A DNA stretch of 64,000 bases from an uncultured Phycisphaeraceae bacterium (GTDB lineage: Bacteria > Planctomycetota > Phycisphaerae > Phycisphaerales > UBA1924), in NCBI GenBank assembly GCA_964628245.1, contig CAZVMU010000007.1, forward strand, positions 66,090 through 130,089, in the 5' to 3' direction. Position numbers and translations under genes: made by a program. How positions within the stretch are numbered: the stretch's first letter is position 1; each line of letters begins with the position of its first letter. Positions 23,724 through 34,006 of the stretch are shown in pieces. The notes under the pieces were generated by a model. That model did no database searches. It saw nothing but the letters and a program-made list of their open reading frames with translations, and had not been told where the DNA came from.

Positions 23724-23895
23724 TCGCCGCGCTCCTGAATGAGCCTTGGACGAGGCCGCAGGCCAGCGACACCATCCGATAACTGATTTCACAGACGCCG
23801 ATTCTGACCCACACTCAGGGGAGAATCACGTCGTGCCGATGTGCAGTACACCTGGAACCTCGTCGACAGGTCGCCCATCTCGCGAACTTCTCCAC

Positions 23896-25155
23896 ATGCC
23901 GCCACAGACCGACACCACCCTCGCACCGCTGCCCGCGCCCATGGCCGCCTCGCTCATGGACCGCCTGGCTTCCCTCTCGATCCCCACGCCCGATCCCGTC
24001 GCGTTCCGGATCCTTGAACTCGGGTCCAATCCCGATGCGGGAATCCGTGAGTACGCCGCCGTCCTTCGATCGGACCCGGCCTGCGTCGCGCGCCTCCTCC
24101 GCCTCGCGAACTCTGCATTCTGCGCCCAGCGCACCTCCGTCACCACGATCGAGCGTGCGTGCATGCTCCTGGGCGTTGGACGAGTCCGCGCGGTCGCCCT
24201 GGGGATCCACCTCTCGCGGGCCGCGCAAGGGAGCACCCCCGATGCGTTCACCCGCCAGGTCTGGGGCGAGTCGCTCTTCCGAGCCTGCCTCGCCACATCA
24301 CTCTCGAAACTCTCGAACCCAACCTATCAAGGCGAGGCCTTCGTCATCGGGCTTCTGCTCGACGTCGGCGTGTCGCTCCTCACCCGACTCTTCCCTGGTC
24401 TCTACCCGACGCGTGAGTCGCGCGACCTCTCCCCCGCGGTGCGTGCCGCATGGGAGCGAGAGCATCTAGGCGTCTCCCACGCCGACGTCGCCGCCGCGCT
24501 CACGCTGATGTGGAAACTCCCCGATCTTCTCGCGTTTCCCATCGCCCACCACCATCAGGTCCCGCGCGATCTCACGCGCCCCGAACCGGTCCATCGCCTC
24601 CACCGTCTCGCCTACGCCGTTGGCATCGTGGAACTCGCGGCCTCGCCCGCGCGCGTTCGTCCCGACACGCTCCCCAGCCTGGCCTCACCCACGCGCCACG
24701 CGATCGCCGAGCGCCTGCTCACGATCGACCACCACCAATCCGAGGCCGCCCTCGCGGCCGCTCGAGCCGAGTACGCCCTCCTCGCCGACACGTTCACCGA
24801 CATCGCCCAGCCGGTCGACATCGCCGACGCCCTCCTCGAACGTTTGCAGACGCTGCTCACCTCCACCATGGACCAGATTCTCCTGGAGTCCATGGGTCCA
24901 CGCCCAGACCAGCCTCTTGCGCATCTGACCCTTGGTGGGCATCGTGTCGAGATCCAACGCGAGCCGGCGGGAAAGATGACCGCGTTTCTCTATGACTCCA
25001 AGGGCCAGCGGCTCGTCGGCCACTCGTTCTTCCCCTCCGACGAATCCGCCTCGACCATCGCCGGGGCCTTGGGGCTCTCGATTGCCCCCAACGACGACGT
25101 TGACGCCCTCACAACTCTTCTGGACCAGGCCTCGAACACAAGACGATCCGCCTAG
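23896..25155 (+). CDS. HDOD domain-containing signalling protein
   Basis: HDOD-like segment (AVLRSDPACVARLLRLANSAFCAQRTSVTTIERACMLLGVGRVRAVALGIHL). Start uncertain; could be 23746. Confidence 0.65.
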   Translation: MPPQTDTTLAPLPAPMAASLMDRLASLSIPTPDPVAFRILELGSNPDAGIREYAAVLRSDPACVARLLRLANSAFCAQRTSVTTIERACMLLGVGRVRAVALGIHLSRAAQGSTPDAFTRQVWGESLFRACLATSLSKLSNPTYQGEAFVIGLLLDVGVSLLTRLFPGLYPTRESRDLSPAVRAAWEREHLGVSHADVAAALTLMWKLPDLLAFPIAHHHQVPRDLTRPEPVHRLHRLAYAVGIVELAASPARVRPDTLPSLASPTRHAIAERLLTIDHHQSEAALAAARAEYALLADTFTDIAQPVDIADALLERLQTLLTSTMDQILLESMGPRPDQPLAHLTLGGHRVEIQREPAGKMTAFLYDSKGQRLVGHSFFPSDESASTIAGALGLSIAPNDDVDALTTLLDQASNTRRSA

Positions 25156-27953
25156 TCCGCGACGGCCGCGCTCGACCTCGCCCCGCCGGACTTCCCTCGC
25201 GCGTGCGACACGATCACTCGCCCGATCTCCACGAACCCCATCGCCCGACCACCGCTCGCCCGCCGATCGGCGCCGAGCGCATACATCCGCGTCCACAACC
25301 CCAGCAGCACGCCATACGCCCACACCGGCGATCGCCCGGGGTCGTACATGTTCGTCGGCTCCGACGTCAAGCCATTGAGTTCGACGATCCCGAACTCCCG
25401 CCCCTCACGAAGCGATTCCTCGCTTGTGTACCGCACATCGAACCGCCCGAAATCCAACCCGCCGAAGTCACGCACCATCGCGTCGATCGCCGCGCTCAAC
25501 TTTGGGCTCATCAGGTGCGCCCCGTCCCGAAACAAGGTCCCCTGCGCATGATTCCCGGCCTGCGCCAGTCGGATCCGCTCGCCACGCTCGGGCACGCGTG
25601 AGAGATCCGCCGCGAACCGATCGAGAAACACCCCCGCCTGCCGCCGATATCGCGGATGCGTGAGAATGAACTCCTCGAGCGTGCGCACGCCGTCCCCCTC
25701 CACAACCGGAAACTCCTTGTGCGTCACCGCATAGATCGACCCCAGCGCCTCGGTGTCCGTCTCGCGCTTCCCCGGATGCCGAACCCACAACACCCCGCAC
25801 TCGTGCGGCCCCTCGTGGAACGCCTGCACCACCACATCCGCCGAGATCTCGATCAGCACCTCGCGCAGTCGCGCCTCATCGCGCACCACCCGCACCGAGT
25901 GGCCACGCTCCCCCTTGTCGGCCTTCACGATCACCGGAAAGCCGCCAAGTTCCGCATCGTTCCGGATCGCGTGCATCGCCCGCTCGAACCGCGCCTCGAT
26001 CGATGCTTCGCGCGAGATCAGCACGCTCTTCAGGACACCCGCCGGGCGCTCCGCACGCCTCGTGTGCCCGCGCTCGACGAACCGCGTCACGATCGCGTGC
26101 TTGCTCTCGCCGGCAATCCCGCCTCCCTGCTCGATCCCCGGATTGCAGCATGTGGGCAGCGTCGCCCCGCGATGCCGGATCGCCAGCCACGCCGCCCAGG
26201 GCACCACCGGCATATACCACGCCCACGTCGGCCAGTACTCATGCCGCCACAATCGTCCCACCCACGCCTTCATCCGCGCCCTTCCACGCCACGACGCCAC
26301 GTGCACCACCAACCCAACGATCGCCGCAGACACGATCGACTGGATCATCAGTCCCCACACGCCCCACTCGATCGTCAACCGCTTGCACAGTCCCACCGCG
26401 ACCACCGCGCCGACCATCGCCAGAAAACCGAAAATCCCGATGGCCACGAGCCGCCACATCCCAAGCCACAACGTGACGATCCAGACATTTCGCACAGCTG
26501 CCTGTGCCAGCGCCCGCCCCACACCCACCGCCGAAGCCCGGCGTGATCGTGTCTCAAACGTACTCGCGAGCACATCCATCGCCGTGCCGTGAGAGATCCG
26601 CCGACGCCAGTCCGCCCCCGACACGCTCGGCCCCACACCACCCAGCCACGACACATCCATCGCGCCCGCCGAACGCCGCCCCGCCACCCACAGTCCAACA
26701 CTCTCCGCCCCCAGCCCCACCATCACACCAACAGCAGCCACCGCCGGGTCCAGCGCCGCCCGCCCGATCAAGAGCGAAGCCAGCACCCCCGCCAGCACCG
26801 GGCTTCGCAGGCACACCGCCCCGATCGCCAGCGCCTCCACCCACCACGGCATCATCTCCACCGCCCGTCGCGCGACCGACACCAACCACTCGCCCACACC
26901 CCGCCGCTCCACACTTTGATCCTCAACTCCCGCCCACGTCGCGTCCCCACTCGCGCGCTCACTCCCCACTCCACGCGCCGCCCGATCGATCCACGCTGTC
27001 GACTCCGCCACCTGAAGCATCGGCAGAAAGTGATCCGCCTCCAGGATCTCCAGCCGGCTCCCGGCGATCAACGCGTGCGCCGACTCCGCCGACCGCACCG
27101 GCGCCAGCGAGTCATACTTCCCATGCAGGATCAGCGTCCGTACGCCATGCTCCCCCACGCGGCGCATCGATTCGCCCAGCACCCGCTGATCCGACTCGGC
27201 AAAGGAATCCAGCCATGCCGTCCGTCCCGCGGCCGTCCCCAACGCCCCAAAGTGAGGCAGCACCTCCACGCCCCATCCCAACCCCAACTCTCCAACCGCA
27301 TACTTGAAGTGCTCGAAGCGATAACTCCCTGAGCCCTCGAACGCCTGCTCACCGATGCTCGCCATCAGCGTCATGCTGCCCGTGCGCTCGCTGTGCGCGT
27401 CGGCCATGTGGACCACGACGCCCCCGCCGTTCGACCACCCCACCAGATTCGCCCGCTCGACGCCCATCGCGTCCAGCACATCCCAGCACGACCGCGCCGT
27501 CGCCCGCATCGACCGAGATTCCGCAGGGAACCGCCCGCCGCCCTCCACACGCGTCCCGGCAAACCCAAACAGATCGATCGCCGCAACGCGATACCCACGA
27601 TCGCCCAGCATCGCCCCAAGCCGCGCAAAGTCCCGCGAACTCCCAGGCGAGCCGTGCACCAGAAACACGACAGGCCGCCCCCCACCATCACCCGCCCACT
27701 CCCCCCACCGAGATACCACAAACCGCATGCGGACACCGGCGGCCGTCCCGTCCGCGAGATACAGAGGCGCCTCCACCGCGACCTCGTTCGGCTCCATCGC
27801 GATCTCGTGATCCGCGTCGTGCATCCCGGCACGAGCACGCACCACCCACGACGCCACGAACGCCACCACCCACACCGCCACAATGACAACAACCACGCGC
27901 CGCCGCCGGGCACGCCGCGCCATCCACCCCACACTCGCCACCGCGTCCCTCAT
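25152..27953 (-). CDS. tripartite fusion: alpha/beta-hydrolase - polytopic membrane domain - ATP-grasp ligase
   Basis: N-terminal alpha/beta-hydrolase (VFLVHGSPGSSRDFARL, GWSNGGGVV nucleophile elbow). About 6 hydrophobic helices. C-terminal ATP-grasp (PVIVKADKGERGHSV, FGIVELNGLTSE). Start ATG overlaps the rlmN stop as ATGA at 27950-27953. Confidence 0.7.
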   Translation of the reverse strand: MRDAVASVGWMARRARRRRVVVVIVAVWVVAFVASWVVRARAGMHDADHEIAMEPNEVAVEAPLYLADGTAAGVRMRFVVSRWGEWAGDGGGRPVVFLVHGSPGSSRDFARLGAMLGDRGYRVAAIDLFGFAGTRVEGGGRFPAESRSMRATARSCWDVLDAMGVERANLVGWSNGGGVVVHMADAHSERTGSMTLMASIGEQAFEGSGSYRFEHFKYAVGELGLGWGVEVLPHFGALGTAAGRTAWLDSFAESDQRVLGESMRRVGEHGVRTLILHGKYDSLAPVRSAESAHALIAGSRLEILEADHFLPMLQVAESTAWIDRAARGVGSERASGDATWAGVEDQSVERRGVGEWLVSVARRAVEMMPWWVEALAIGAVCLRSPVLAGVLASLLIGRAALDPAVAAVGVMVGLGAESVGLWVAGRRSAGAMDVSWLGGVGPSVSGADWRRRISHGTAMDVLASTFETRSRRASAVGVGRALAQAAVRNVWIVTLWLGMWRLVAIGIFGFLAMVGAVVAVGLCKRLTIEWGVWGLMIQSIVSAAIVGLVVHVASWRGRARMKAWVGRLWRHEYWPTWAWYMPVVPWAAWLAIRHRGATLPTCCNPGIEQGGGIAGESKHAIVTRFVERGHTRRAERPAGVLKSVLISREASIEARFERAMHAIRNDAELGGFPVIVKADKGERGHSVRVVRDEARLREVLIEISADVVVQAFHEGPHECGVLWVRHPGKRETDTEALGSIYAVTHKEFPVVEGDGVRTLEEFILTHPRYRRQAGVFLDRFAADLSRVPERGERIRLAQAGNHAQGTLFRDGAHLMSPKLSAAIDAMVRDFGGLDFGRFDVRYTSEESLREGREFGIVELNGLTSEPTNMYDPGRSPVWAYGVLLGLWTRMYALGADRRASGGRAMGFVEIGRVIVSHARGKSGGARSSAAVAD

Positions 27954-29146
27954 GCCCCCGGCACGGTGACCTGCACCAGTCTCCGCCGGCGGATCTCCTC
28001 GCTCCCCAACTGCCCGCACGCCCCCATCATCCGCCGCCCCTTCGTCCGCCGCCGCTTCGCAAAGACGCCGTGCTCGTACAACTCCTCCAGGAACCGTGTC
28101 ACCGACTCCTCGCTCGGCGCAGGCCACGGCGACTCACGCCGAGGGTTGTACGGGATCACATTCACGATCGCCCGCCTCTTCCCCTTGCGATCCACCAGCG
28201 GCCTCACGAACTCCGCCACCTCCGCAGCCGCCGCCATCGAGTCGTTCACGCCGGGGATCAGCACATACTCCACACAGATCTTGTTCCCCGCATACTCGGG
28301 CCACTCGCGCAGCGCCCGCTGCACCGCCGCCAGATTCCACTTGCGATTCACCGGCATCAACTCCGACCGCACCGCGTCATTCGGCGCATTGAGCGACAAC
28401 GCCAATCCCAACCGATGCCACCCCGGCTCACGCACCTTCTCCGCCAGCCGCCGGATCCCATCCACCCGCCCCACCGTCGAGACCGTGATCTGACTCATCG
28501 CGATCCCCGCCCCGAACTGATCCGTCAGCACCTCGATCGCCCCCAGCACCGCCTCTATGTTGTCCAGGGGCTCCCCCATCCCCATGAACACGATGTTCTG
28601 TGGCCGGATCCCCACCTCGTGCGCCGCCGCGTGCCATTGCCCCACGATCTCCGCGACCGTCAGTGACCGGATCAGCCCCATCTGGGCCGTCTCGCAGAAC
28701 CCGCACCCCATCGCGCACCCGACCTGGCTCGACACGCACAGCGTGTACGTCCGCGCGCCGCTGCTCCCGATCATCGGGATCAGCACCGATTCAATATCCA
28801 GATGCGGAAACCGCTCGCGCCCCGCCCTCCCCTCCTCCCCCGCCTCCCCCAGAGGCAATCGCTGCACAAACTTCACCACCTCACCCTCGTCCGACTCCTC
28901 GCGCAGCATCCGCACGATTCCCGCCCGATCAACCCGGACCTCTCCTCCATCCGTCGTCGCGACGCTCATCACCCCATCGCGCACCATCGCCCGATACGCC
29001 GCGATCGCTCCGCGCGCGCCCCCGACCCGCCCCCCCCGCCCCGCCCCAGCGCTCCCGTCCACGTGCACAATCCGCCCGCGCCACCGCTCCGCGAACGCCG
29101 CGCTCGTCATCGCCAACGGAGATTCCACGCCCGATTCGACCACCAT
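27950..29146 (-). CDS. rlmN: 23S rRNA m2A2503 / tRNA m2A37 methyltransferase (radical SAM)
   Basis: Radical-SAM CxxxCxxC (GCAMGCGFCETAQ) and downstream RlmN-type motifs (NIVFMGMGEPLDN, SLNAPNDAVRSEL). Start uncertain. Confidence 0.85.
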   Translation of the reverse strand: MVVESGVESPLAMTSAAFAERWRGRIVHVDGSAGAGRGGRVGGARGAIAAYRAMVRDGVMSVATTDGGEVRVDRAGIVRMLREESDEGEVVKFVQRLPLGEAGEEGRAGRERFPHLDIESVLIPMIGSSGARTYTLCVSSQVGCAMGCGFCETAQMGLIRSLTVAEIVGQWHAAAHEVGIRPQNIVFMGMGEPLDNIEAVLGAIEVLTDQFGAGIAMSQITVSTVGRVDGIRRLAEKVREPGWHRLGLALSLNAPNDAVRSELMPVNRKWNLAAVQRALREWPEYAGNKICVEYVLIPGVNDSMAAAAEVAEFVRPLVDRKGKRRAIVNVIPYNPRRESPWPAPSEESVTRFLEELYEHGVFAKRRRTKGRRMMGACGQLGSEEIRRRRLVQVTVPGA

Positions 29147-30901: not shown

Positions 30902-31139
30902 CACGCCGCCTCCAGACCCCGACGGGCTGGCCCCGTCACATTGGGGCCTCCAGGGAGGAATGTGCACCACGCTTCCGGTTTGTCAACCAAAGTGGCCGGA
31001 TTCTGGAAGATTCAGGGAAACGACCGGGCCCGCGACCCGCCCCCCGAGTGCCCGATCACGAATGCCGACTCACGAATCACGATTCATGAACCACCAACAT
31101 CGATCACCCAGTCGTGCCGCGCCCCCGCAAGAGAGCCCT

Positions 31140-32861
31140 CTACTTCTTCCCACCCCCACCCCCCGCCCCCCCCGTCCCTTCATCCTTCACGAGCGCGTCC
31201 AGCATCGTCCCCACCAACGCCGCCCCTTCCCCATTTCCACCCCCACCACTCCCATTCACCATCACCCGAGGCGTGATCTGGATGTTCCGCTCCCCCACCA
31301 CCTTCAGGATCTCAATGAGCGCCGCGTTGCTCGCCCCGATCGATTCGGCAATCTTCGCGTACGCCGCCGCCTGCGACTTCGCGCGGATCTCGATCGACTC
31401 CGCCTCCGTCGCCGCCTCGATCAGTTTCTTCGACTTCTCCTGCTCGGCGATCTGCACCGCATACGACGCCGTCGCCAACTTCCGCTCCTCCTCGGCCTCC
31501 TGCTCCGCACGCGTCAACGACTTCTTCTGCTCCGCCGCCTTCTCCTGCTCCTTGTATGTCTCCAGTTGCTGCTTGGCGATCTCGCGGTCGCGCTGGGTCT
31601 TCAGCAGCGTCCCCAGCGTCTCCTCGTCGCCCACCGCGCCGATGCGCACCGCCGTGATGCTCACGCCAAAACGCGACATCTCGTCGGCCAGCATGTCCAG
31701 GCTCTGCTTCTCCTGGTGCGATCGCTGCTGCACATAATCCAACGCCGCGACCTTCTCCGCGTTGTTGCGGAAGATCGCCCGCACCGCCGAGTTCAGCGCG
31801 TTGTGGAACCGGTCCTTCTCGTCGTCCCCAAGTTTCGCCACCACGATCGGCGCATTGTGCGGCTCAATGAAATACTCGATCCGCACATCAACCGGGAACT
31901 GGAACCCGTCCCGCGTGATCACCGTGATCGCCCGCTCATCCGCCGCCGAGTCACGCGAGACCCGCGTGGAATCATTCTTGCTCGGCACCGGGTTCGACGA
32001 CCCGCTTGCCGTGTAGTGCGCGATCATCTGCGTCGTCCAGATCTCCGTCACCGTGAACGCGTCCGTGTTGAGCGGATACTTCCCAGGCGGCAGCGTCTCG
32101 GCGCGAATCCCCATCTCTCCCTCGCCCGCCAGTCTCAACCGCCGGACGTTCGAAGGAGGCATCGCGCTCGCGTTGGGCGAATCCGCCCCCGACTCGAGCG
32201 AGCCGGCCGGACCCTCGACCACCTTCGTCGGAGGATCGCCGAAGTTCGCCGTCAGCACCGCGACCTCGCCGGGGATCACCACGGTCTGCGAGACCATCTT
32301 CACCTTGAACAGCCGCGTGTTGAGACGGTACGTCCCCGGCTTGAGCACCGTCGTCTGCTTGCCCTTGTACCCCTTGCCCGTCGTGAGAAACGTCTGCGCG
32401 TCAAGCATCGCGGAGACCTCACCCGCCGCCCACTCGGGCGCAAAGAGCATTCCCTGCGTCATCGCCACGCCATCGGTCGCCTCGATGATCCCCACCTGGT
32501 CCGCCGGCACGACGACCAGATCCTCATTCGACACGCTGTACAGCACAGGCCACAGACCCCAGTGCCATCCCGGCGCCAGCACCTCGGCCTGCACGCCCAT
32601 CTCGCCATCCACAGCGATGATCCGTCCATCCTTGAGCGACGAGCCCAACGCGTTCTTCGTCACAATCCCGACCTCGTTCGCCCCGACATACGCGACAGAA
32701 CTCATCACCACCCCGCCGACAAAGACGAGAACCGCCCCGATGAGCGCCACGATCCGCAGTCTCTTCATCGGGATCCTCGGAATCGTGGACAGAATGCCCA
32801 CCGCCAGAACCATCGCGATGACAAGCACGATCAACTGCATGATGACCCCCTTCTCGAGCAT
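31140..32861 (-). CDS. flotillin-like SPFH/Band-7 domain protein
   Basis: N-terminal TM. SPFH domain. Long Ala/Glu-rich coiled-coil flotillin C-terminus (EQEAEEERKLATASYAVQIAEQEKSKKLIEAATEAESIEIRAKSQAAAYAKIAE). Confidence 0.85.
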   Translation of the reverse strand: MLEKGVIMQLIVLVIAMVLAVGILSTIPRIPMKRLRIVALIGAVLVFVGGVVMSSVAYVGANEVGIVTKNALGSSLKDGRIIAVDGEMGVQAEVLAPGWHWGLWPVLYSVSNEDLVVVPADQVGIIEATDGVAMTQGMLFAPEWAAGEVSAMLDAQTFLTTGKGYKGKQTTVLKPGTYRLNTRLFKVKMVSQTVVIPGEVAVLTANFGDPPTKVVEGPAGSLESGADSPNASAMPPSNVRRLRLAGEGEMGIRAETLPPGKYPLNTDAFTVTEIWTTQMIAHYTASGSSNPVPSKNDSTRVSRDSAADERAITVITRDGFQFPVDVRIEYFIEPHNAPIVVAKLGDDEKDRFHNALNSAVRAIFRNNAEKVAALDYVQQRSHQEKQSLDMLADEMSRFGVSITAVRIGAVGDEETLGTLLKTQRDREIAKQQLETYKEQEKAAEQKKSLTRAEQEAEEERKLATASYAVQIAEQEKSKKLIEAATEAESIEIRAKSQAAAYAKIAESIGASNAALIEILKVVGERNIQITPRVMVNGSGGGGNGEGAALVGTMLDALVKDEGTGGAGGGGGKK

Positions 32862-33017
32862 CCGGCCAGGTGCACGCCGCTCCGCACGATACTGGTGATT
32901 GCGAAAATCTCACACACGATTTCGCCGACAGTGTACCCGATCCCGCGATCACACGTGTCGCGCGCGCAACAACGCCACGCCAGCGTTTCACGTGGAACAA
33001 TGAATCGATCGCGCAAC

Positions 33018-33920
33018 TCAGGGTCTTGGATTGTCCGCCCAGCCGAACGGCCTCACCGTCGCCGGCCAACTCGGGCCGATCGTGAACCAGCCCGTCTTCC
33101 CACGAACGTAAATGTCGTTCGCCACGCAGTCGCCCAGGTCCGCCTGCGAATCGCCGCGCGGCCCGCGCGGCAAGCCGACGAGCTGCACATCGCCGTTGAT
33201 GTACAGGATGTGCCCCTTCCCCCCGTGACGATTCGTCAACTGGTCCCAGTTGCTGAACATGCCGTCAGGACTGCGGCTGTTCCACCACTCGATGTCCTCC
33301 TCGAGATACGCCGGCAAACCGGCGAGCTTCTCGAGATTAATCGCCGGCGGCTGCCCGGCGCGCGCGGCCTGGGCCGTGCGCGTGCGGCATCGGTTGTCCC
33401 ACGCGACCTCGTAGAACCCATCCACGCGTGCGCCCGAGGCGCCGGTGATCATGGTGTAATCAAAGTTGATAGCGCGCGGCGTGAGAAACTCGTTGAACAA
33501 CACCAACTGCAGTCGCCGCGCCGGGTCCTGCCATTCCGGCGCCGATGGGTTCGCGACAAACTGCGTCGGCGTGCGGCGCTTGTTGGTCGGGCAGGCGAAG
33601 ATGTTGTCCACGTTGGTGAGATAGATGAACCCAGGGCCGACGACCGCCGGGTTCGCCGTCGAGAGCGCCTGGAGCGGATTGCGAGGCTGGGCGTACCAGA
33701 ATCGGTACGGGTTGTTGACGCCCGTCTCCCAGACGCGCCCCTTGAAGTCGTTGGCGTAGGCCTGGAGCCCGACGCCGATCTGTTTGTTGTTCGACATGCA
33801 CGCCACGGTCCGCCCGGCTTCACGCGCCTTACTGAGCGCAGGAAGCAGGAGCGAGATCAGCAGCGCGATGATGGCGATGACGACGAGCAACTCGATGAGG
33901 GTGAACGCCTTCCGAATCAT
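33018..33920 (-). CDS. DUF1559 family protein with prepilin-type N-terminal cleavage/methylation domain
   Basis: N-terminus [37 protein letters not shown] is a type IV pilin-like signal. This architecture is typical of Planctomycetes DUF1559 proteins. Confidence 0.85.
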
Positions 33921-34006
33921 GACTGTAATTTATCACACTCCGCGGAAAACACAAGTTCGGGAACCGTTTGTGCCTAGGATCGGCTCGACTTTTTGGGAGA
34001 TTTGGC

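Follow-up and report, generated by a model that had tools for sequence, protein, structure and literature searches.

A conserved membrane protein joining an alpha/beta hydrolase, a DedA-like module and an ATP-grasp ligase in a Phycisphaeraceae bacterium

We analysed a window of 64,000 nucleotides from the genome of an uncultured Phycisphaeraceae bacterium (contig CAZVMU010000007.1, positions 66,090 to 130,089), in which one gene on the minus strand encodes a protein of 933 amino acids. This protein is a real, conserved membrane protein in which an alpha/beta hydrolase, a membrane module and an ATP-grasp ligase are joined in a single chain. The three domains could be identified, both enzymes retain their catalytic residues, and the fusion has been conserved. 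The protein belongs to both the ATP-grasp and the alpha/beta-hydrolase superfamilies and descends from the DedA/VTT proteins. Judging from the literature searched, its ligase belongs to an unnamed, apparently membrane-interfacial ATP-grasp subfamily, within a fusion that has not been described. The probable role of the protein is to modify a membrane-bound molecule and later to undo that modification. The gene and its parts (all on the minus strand) are as follows.

25152..27953, minus strand: fusion gene (hydrolase–DedA-like–ATP-grasp), with its stop codon at 25152-25154; complete, as judged from the open reading frame (ORF), the homologs and the AlphaFold2 (AF2) model
27840..27896, minus strand: N-terminal transmembrane anchor, residues 20-38; Kyte-Doolittle peak 2.96, AF2 helix at 3-41
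26964..27785, minus strand: alpha/beta-hydrolase domain, residues ~57-330, PF00561; predicted to be periplasmic
27432-27434, 27111-27113 and 27030-27032, minus strand: codons of the triad residues Ser174 (in GWSNG), Asp281 and His308
26298..26897, minus strand: degenerate DedA/VTT-derived membrane module, residues ~353-552, identified from VTT matches in homologs and AF2 helices; its predicted parts are hairpin 1 (~370-397), transmembrane helix (TMH) 1 (~403-427), an Arg-rich cytoplasmic loop (428-489) that holds hairpin 2, TMH2 (~490-530) and a C-terminal TMH (532-552)
25185..26291, minus strand: ATP-grasp ligase domain, residues ~555-923; predicted to be cytoplasmic
25923-25925, 25437-25445 and 25374-25382, minus strand: codons of the ligase catalytic residues K677, R837/D839 and E858/N860

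The ORF contains 933 codons and no internal stop. Several very long ORFs rich in Arg, His, Pro and Leu, such as 30960-33977 on the plus strand, lie antisense to real genes in the window and look like artefacts of high GC content, and hence ORF length alone is no proof of a gene here. BLASTP retrieved 43 homologs of 689-1137 amino acids (E-values from 0 to 7e-70). Query coverage was about 90% or more for most of them, while for one third the best BLASTP segment covered 28-44%. The closest homolog (P0002), from an independent genome, is 79% identical, likewise 933 amino acids long, and has the identical start and the identical overlap of 4 bp with the upstream gene. Because P0002 shares these features, we rejected a longer version of the ORF that begins at a GTG at 28127, inside the upstream rlmN gene. 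Conservation was high at both ends of the protein among 27 aligned sequences, and the full-length AF2 model was confident across the whole chain (predicted local distance difference test, pLDDT, 87.3; predicted template-modelling score, pTM, 0.82). Long spurious ORFs are abundant in high-GC DNA, but the three-part protein recurs in dozens of independent assemblies. Together with the conserved ends and the confident model, this refutes the idea of a chance ORF or of genes joined by a frameshift, to which we assign a negligible probability. The original prediction, made from the DNA letters of the window, that this is one polypeptide therefore stands, and the motifs that it quoted are all present (GWSNG with Ser174, PVIVKADKG with K677, and E-L-N with E858 and N860).

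The N-terminal part of the protein consists of the anchor helix, which is preceded by an RRARRRR stretch, and the alpha/beta hydrolase. The hydrolase matched the Pfam family Abhydrolase_1 (PF00561) with an E-value of 6e-18 and 65.8 bits, against a cut-off of 25.8. It has the G-x-S-x-G nucleophile elbow of this fold, and S174, D281 and H308 were invariant in the 27 aligned sequences, in the canonical order Ser-Asp-His. An N-terminal alpha/beta hydrolase with a GWSNG elbow had been predicted, and the Pfam match and the intact triad bear this out. Sequence matches in the PDB were ordinary esterases, C-C hydrolases (MCP hydrolases) and valacyclovir hydrolase. In a Foldseek search with the full-length model, only alpha/beta hydrolases were retrieved, and the membrane module was without any match. 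The best match was PlaF of Pseudomonas aeruginosa (6i8w; E 4.4e-11, 18% identity), with a template-modelling (TM) score of 0.62 to the target over 344 aligned columns, which exceeds the length of the hydrolase domain itself. PlaF is a membrane-anchored phospholipase A1 and shares with the fusion protein a single N-terminal helix followed by an alpha/beta hydrolase, but it stands unfused. Many generic esterases scored nearly as well as PlaF in both the PDB sequence search and Foldseek. Valacyclovir hydrolase, which cleaves amino acid esters, reached a TM score of 0.76 to the target.

The C-terminal ligase was much less visible to sequence libraries. Searches of this part of the protein against Pfam, NCBIfam and, as a single sequence, the PDB gave only sub-threshold matches around the K-loop, and no Pfam or NCBIfam model reached its cut-off on the ligase. 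The Pfam family RimK (PF08443) scored 14.8 bits against a cut-off of 21 (E 0.022) on the window protein, and was matched at E<0.01 by one of the 27 homologs. A profile of 19 sequences, however, matched the G domain of the cyanophycin synthetase CphA1 with an E-value of 2.4e-8 over about 200 residues that take in both the lid insertion and the E-x-N motif. The AF2 model of the domain (pLDDT 89.6) contains the central and C-terminal subdomains of the ATP-grasp fold, and fold comparison placed LysX/ArgX, CphA, Ddl and RimK as its nearest relatives. K677, Q710, E718, R837, D839, R841, E858 and N860 were invariant in the family alignments. They include the ATP-grasp lysine, the catalytic arginine and the acidic and Asn ligands of magnesium, and the K-loop and E-x-N motif align with those of the CphA1 G domain. 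We take the invariant residues to be equivalent to the ATP-binding Lys and the R-x-D / E-x-N set of D-Ala-D-Ala ligase, a mapping based on DdlB. The ATP-grasp domain had been called unmistakable. The domain is genuine, as the CphA1 profile and the fold attest, but the sub-threshold library matches do not justify that word. Loss of catalytic residues on alignment had been named as a reason to abandon the assignment; they are retained.

The ligase differs from these relatives in several ways. Its identity to RimK, LysX, ArgX and the CphA G domain is 12-20%, and the E-x-N-x-x-P-G motif of these enzymes is replaced by ELNGxxSExTNxYDP in the family of the window ligase. Instead of the canonical N-terminal (pre-ATP-grasp) alpha/beta subdomain, it has an amphipathic Arg-rich helix, a hydrophobic hairpin rich in Trp and Pro (572-596; residues 572-592 read EYWPTWAWYMPVVPWAAWLAI) and the conserved loop NPGIxxGGGxxGESK (604-618), a helical segment that would lie at the membrane interface. 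The hydrophobic hairpin EFWPxWxFYxP is retained even in stand-alone ligases of the family. Because it follows a strongly positive segment, both in the fusion and in a permuted relative described below (P0180), it cannot be a full membrane span, and it is best read as a monotopic membrane anchor. Unlike the RimK and CphA enzymes, the window ligase appears to be tethered to the membrane and is fused to other modules. The cyanophycin synthetase model TIGR02068 scored 13.3 bits against a cut-off of 850, a similarity confined to the G domain, and the M and N domains of CphA are missing. On sequence grounds, the ligase thus falls outside both the RimK family and the cyanophycin synthetases.

Between the two enzymes lies a hydrophobic and variable membrane module that could be traced through intermediates. 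The window protein itself lacks a match to the Pfam family VTT_dom (PF09335, DedA/SNARE-associated), but five of the 27 homologs match it (best E 1.5e-14), as do two-domain relatives of about 540 amino acids. A local hidden Markov model (HMM) built from canonical VTT members separates two subtypes, and the local family HMM matched the window protein with an E-value of 6.5e-43. Since these intermediates link it to the canonical members, the module is a DedA/VTT homolog, and it appears to descend from the DedA/VTT lipid transporters and scramblases. The pattern of AF2 helices and charges fits the published DedA topology. In TMEM41B, for which the topology was verified biochemically, an N-terminal TMH is followed by re-entrant loop 1, TMH1, an extramembrane region, re-entrant loop 2 and TMH2; a C-terminal TMH completes the set, and both termini are cytosolic. 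The fusion protein is predicted to have the same order of elements as the DedA/VTT superfamily (YqjA, PetA, UptA, TMEM41B, VMP1), but differs in that one enzyme is inserted in what would be the first periplasmic loop and a second is attached at the C-terminus. About six transmembrane segments had been predicted; a membrane domain is indeed present, but it is better described as a DedA-like set, with an extra anchor (20-38) before the hydrolase and, after the set, an interfacial hairpin (572-596) that is part of the ligase domain. In the literature searched, no link between DedA and ATP-grasp proteins was found, and no enzyme was reported to be covalently attached to a DedA/VTT protein.

The module of the window protein is degenerate. 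It keeps nine of the 32 positions that are invariant in the five canonical members. The acids of the SED and GD motifs were lost in all 22 non-canonical members. At the sites equivalent to those of YqjA, the window protein has P385 instead of the Glu, S418 instead of the Asp (with a Glu one position earlier) and T465 instead of the first Arg, so that one of the two signature arginines is left (the second, R471). In YqjA, E39/D51 and R130/R136 are required for function.

Relatives of the ligase are widespread. A ligase-domain profile retrieved 4,011 cluster representatives (clustered at 50% identity) at E<=1e-3 and 1,556 at E<=1e-30, and a scan with a ligase alignment of five sequences found a relative in at least 570 GTDB species genomes. 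A search with a Leptospira ligase yielded 5,324 clusters (90% identity) at E<=1e-10, and among the best 120 matches listed the form with VTT and ATP-grasp domains was the commonest. The family thus extends from the Planctomycetota to Leptospira, including pathogens, under names that are only generic ('alpha/beta fold hydrolase', 'membrane protein DedA', 'VTT domain-containing protein', 'carboxylate--amine ligase', 'hypothetical'). Many Leptospira species have ligase homologs, among them the pathogens L. interrogans, L. santarosai and L. weilii, and these proteins are named only 'carboxylate--amine ligase' or hypothetical.

We scored the arrangement of the modules with local HMMs on six-frame ORFs of 89 loci. 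Four arrangements were found. The first, represented by the fusion gene of the window, is a triple fusion whose membrane module is decayed and whose gene comes directly after rlmN (about 30 loci, all in metagenome-assembled genomes of Phycisphaerae/Planctomycetota). The second is a triple fusion with an intact VTT domain. The third is a VTT–ATP-grasp protein of about 540-610 amino acids, which occurs in Planctomycetales, Gemmataceae, Phycisphaerae and others, and the fourth is a stand-alone ligase in Leptospira, Polarisedimenticolia and some Phycisphaerae. Hence, ligase, hydrolase and VTT module recur together, either as neighbouring genes or as fusions in which ligase and hydrolase occur in two orders. 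The second order is found in P0180, a metagenomic protein of 689 amino acids, with the ATP-grasp domain at 18-373, a single hydrophobic helix and the alpha/beta hydrolase at 463-673. This protein has no VTT domain, and the pairing of ligase and hydrolase is therefore independent of the DedA module. In Leptospira ainlahdjerensis (L066, 5422-9332), a DinB-like gene precedes a stand-alone ligase of 342 amino acids that starts with MKRPEFWPAWIFY and has the hairpin EFWPAW. A related alpha/beta hydrolase is encoded two genes downstream and begins with a lipoprotein signal and an LFSSC lipobox. The gene between the two reads, by eye, as a putative adenylate-cyclase-like gene.

Most loci of the second and third arrangements have genes of the DinB superfamily and the TANGO2/NRDE family immediately upstream on the same strand, sometimes together with a DoxX gene. 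Of the 89 loci, 28 have a DinB-like gene and 31 a TANGO2-like gene, and the linkage to DinB/TANGO2 and the linkage to rlmN were mutually exclusive. A rough neighbour-joining tree of the ligase domain grouped the window protein with the rlmN-linked forms. The operon (DoxX)–DinB–TANGO2/NRDE–[hydrolase]–VTT–ATP-grasp can be seen on one strand in L083 (3453-7059), L015 (2993-7119), L005 (2068-6082) and L009 (2448-5774). The TANGO2-like proteins begin with Met-Cys-Thr and carry NRDE. The Met-Cys and NRDE residues have been proposed to be catalytic in human TANGO2, and Cys-Ntn hydrolases of the TANGO2 type have been proposed to act on derivatives of fatty acids, with TANGO2 hydrolysing fatty-acid-derived amides (PMC13044924). 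Nothing that joins TANGO2 with ATP-grasp or with DinB was found in the literature searched. The operon offers a testable bacterial context for TANGO2, a protein whose biochemical function in humans is still disputed. The window copy is a diverged subtype with a decayed VTT domain, relocated behind rlmN, and is therefore a less informative member of the family; more can be learnt from the wider family with its operon, which lie outside the window.

Some members of the family carry further elements. P0008 and P0010 (~1120 amino acids), L059, L078 and L044 have an extra N-terminal extension of about 250 amino acids, with several more hydrophobic helices before the hydrolase. P0007 has a low-complexity insertion rich in Gly, Arg and Gln inside its ATP-grasp domain. 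In a Planctomycetaceae locus (L067, 7053-9592), the gene after the VTT–ATP-grasp gene encodes an alpha/beta hydrolase that lacks a signal sequence, and next comes an ORF of 550 amino acids that, judged by eye from its SSGTTSG motif, encodes a putative GH3-type acyl-acid amido synthetase.

The topology of the fusion protein was derived from sequence rules and from the architecture of homologs. With good support, these place the hydrolase in the periplasm and the ligase in the cytoplasm, on opposite faces of the membrane, with the N-terminus predicted to be cytoplasmic. Net charge per 10 amino acids, summed over homologs, was +2.3 in the N-terminal flank, +0.1 after the first transmembrane segment, 0.0 before hairpin 1, +1.15 in the loop 424-489, 0.0 in the turn 521-533 and +2.5 after the last TMH. 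This positive-inside pattern points to a hydrolase outside and a ligase inside. Three further, independent lines agree with this: the predicted order of elements equals the DedA topology verified for TMEM41B, the hydrolase occupying the first extracytoplasmic loop; P0180 runs from ligase through one hydrophobic helix to hydrolase; and the Leptospira hydrolase near the stand-alone ligase is a lipoprotein. The ligase needs ATP and would therefore be cytoplasmic. The fusion would thus set an ATP-dependent ligase and an opposing hydrolase on opposite faces of a DedA scaffold, within a superfamily under active study for the transport of lipids and polyprenyl phosphates.

These features suggest a polytopic enzyme of the inner membrane, with a DedA-type scaffold and the following mechanism. 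The anchor helix would cross the membrane and display the Ser-Asp-His hydrolase on the periplasmic face, after which the chain would return through the degenerate DedA/VTT module to the cytoplasmic ligase, whose own Trp/Pro-rich hairpin would seat it on the inner leaflet. The ligase would use ATP to convert a carboxylate into an acyl-phosphate, and would then join it, at the cytoplasmic leaflet, to a membrane-associated partner that offers an amine or a hydroxyl; this partner is most likely a lipid or a lipid-like head group. The product would then pass to the outer leaflet. Where relatives have kept the VTT domain intact, it probably does so via that domain; in the window subtype, its transit may be passive or follow another route. 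Finally, the tethered periplasmic hydrolase would act on the same molecule or on its lipid part, cleaving the product itself or one of its acyl esters. The protein would thus combine a writer inside with an eraser outside, like MprF/LpiA with AcvB. In its general form, that a membrane-associated molecule is modified inside and the modification is removed outside, we hold this reading tentatively, as a serious possibility. A built-in proof-reading esterase, as had been suggested, is unlikely, because the membrane lies between the two active sites.

The suggested MprF-like function finds a parallel in the spatial layout. In the MprF (LpiA) system with AcvB/PA0919, a cytoplasmic synthase, a membrane translocator and a periplasmic hydrolase of the alpha/beta fold are encoded together (PMC13197417; also PMC8131360). 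The layout predicted for the fusion protein, with a synthase inside, a membrane module and a periplasmic hydrolase, follows the same spatial logic as MprF with AcvB, VirJ or PA0919. However, the fusion has none of the defining features of MprF, since Pfam and NCBIfam scans found neither LPG_synthase_C nor LPG_synthase_TM in it at E<=1. It has no sequence or domain relationship to MprF, and with AcvB and VirJ only the general fold class is common; a Pfam scan found no match to the VirJ family. Moreover, MprF uses aminoacyl-tRNA and a GNAT-like synthase, whereas the fusion would use ATP via an acyl-phosphate and holds all three functions in one chain.

The theme of lipids is indirect. It derives from the DedA proteins, which distribute phospholipids (VTT/DedA proteins move phospholipids; PetA, PMC10193950), from PlaF as the best structural match and from TANGO2 as operon partner. 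Several points weigh against the proposed mechanism. The nearest ATP-grasp relatives act on soluble peptides, proteins and amino acids, not on lipids. The acids required in YqjA are lost, which makes translocation by the window module doubtful, and the DinB/TANGO2 partners are missing from the window, so that inferences from the operon may not transfer to its subtype. The literature searched held no experimental work on any family member. A specific version, in which a surface ATP-grasp ligase writes a new, tRNA-independent lipid decoration that the DedA/VTT module carries across and the periplasmic hydrolase erases, is for us a possibility but not a strong one. If it were true, the operon linkage of the intact-VTT forms would point to the native class of substrates of TANGO2, a human disease protein. 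Should the substrate prove to be a membrane lipid, the family would represent a new tRNA-independent remodelling of bacterial envelopes.

Four alternatives differ in the substrate or in the side on which it is handled. The ligase could be a tRNA-independent aminoacyl-phospholipid synthase that links an amino acid by an ester bond to phosphatidylglycerol or a lipid like it, after which the VTT module flips the product and the hydrolase de-acylates it outside. The spatial logic of the LpiA(MprF)/AcvB pair, the DedA/VTT origin of the membrane module and the resemblance of the hydrolase to PlaF and valacyclovir hydrolase are all consistent with this. Yet the protein has no similarity to the synthase and flippase domains of MprF or to VirJ/AcvB, the nearest ligases form amides on peptide carboxylates, and the VTT signature is degraded in the window subtype; we consider this proposal unlikely. 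The kinship to RimK, LysX and cyanophycin synthetase would alternatively fit a membrane-tethered ligase of peptides or poly-amino acids, which extends a peptide, a protein C-terminus or a small polymer that is exported and then trimmed or released by the hydrolase. We judge this unlikely, since the Mur-ligase-like M domain and the N domain of CphA1 are missing, RimK remains under its gathering threshold, and the N-terminal substrate-binding subdomain has been replaced by the membrane-interface element. Furthermore, DedA/VTT proteins are not known as peptide exporters, and no conserved gene for a carrier protein or precursor was found nearby in the related loci.

ATP-grasp enzymes add D-Asp to peptidoglycan precursors, and Ddl-type ligases are among the fold matches. 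The ligase might accordingly add an amino acid to a carboxylate of lipid I/II or of another intermediate linked to undecaprenyl phosphate, with the DedA-like module binding the polyprenyl carrier. The VTT domain of a two-domain relative does weakly resemble the undecaprenyl-phosphate transporter UptA (E 6e-7, far under the cut-off), but this amounts to generic DedA similarity. The hydrolase resembles esterases and lipases rather than peptidoglycan peptidases, and no mur, fts or pbp genes were conserved beside any subtype in the related loci, which makes a role in cell-wall precursor modification very unlikely. Glutathionylspermidine synthetase/amidase combines, in one polypeptide, an ATP-grasp ligase with a hydrolase that reverses its reaction; we set it apart by description, as its hydrolase is a CHAP amidase and both domains are cytoplasmic and soluble, whereas the hydrolase of the fusion is of the alpha/beta type and lies, by prediction, across the membrane. 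A similar same-side cycle on a soluble metabolite, perhaps a low-molecular-weight thiol conjugate, with the membrane part as a mere anchor, is very unlikely, given that the charge pattern, the architecture of P0180 and the Leptospira lipoprotein put the hydrolase outside the cytoplasm and that the window has no DinB or DoxX gene.

In the window, the fusion gene directly follows an rlmN-like gene.

27950..29146, minus strand: RlmN-family radical-SAM methyltransferase gene (TIGR00048, E 4e-71, under the equivalog cut-off); its start is approximate, as the longest ORF reaches 29359 and the syntenic genes encode about 400 amino acids

The ATG of the fusion gene (27953-27951) overlaps the TGA of this gene (27952-27950) as ATGA, as had been noted from the sequence, and about 30 related loci likewise have an rlmN-like gene immediately before the fusion gene. 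We know of no biochemical connection between rlmN and the fusion protein. A functional link was set aside because rlmN accompanies the fusion gene in a single Phycisphaerae subtype, and only where the DinB/TANGO2 arrangement is missing. The overlap reflects an operon arrangement specific to the lineage and not a known functional link. Within the 64-kb window, no DinB-like ORF, no TANGO2-like ORF and no second copy of any of the modules were found. A role in anti-phage defence was dropped, as PADLOC gave no family match for the fusion protein at E<=0.01.

Downstream of the fusion gene lie housekeeping genes (a convergent HDOD-domain gene, pdxH and dnaB), with synteny conserved in close relatives only. 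The convergent gene (23746-25155, plus strand) was assigned as HDOD-domain by synteny with L001 and L003. No intergenic room is left for a terminator between this gene and the fusion gene; their stop codons overlap in the palindrome CTAG at 25152-25155.

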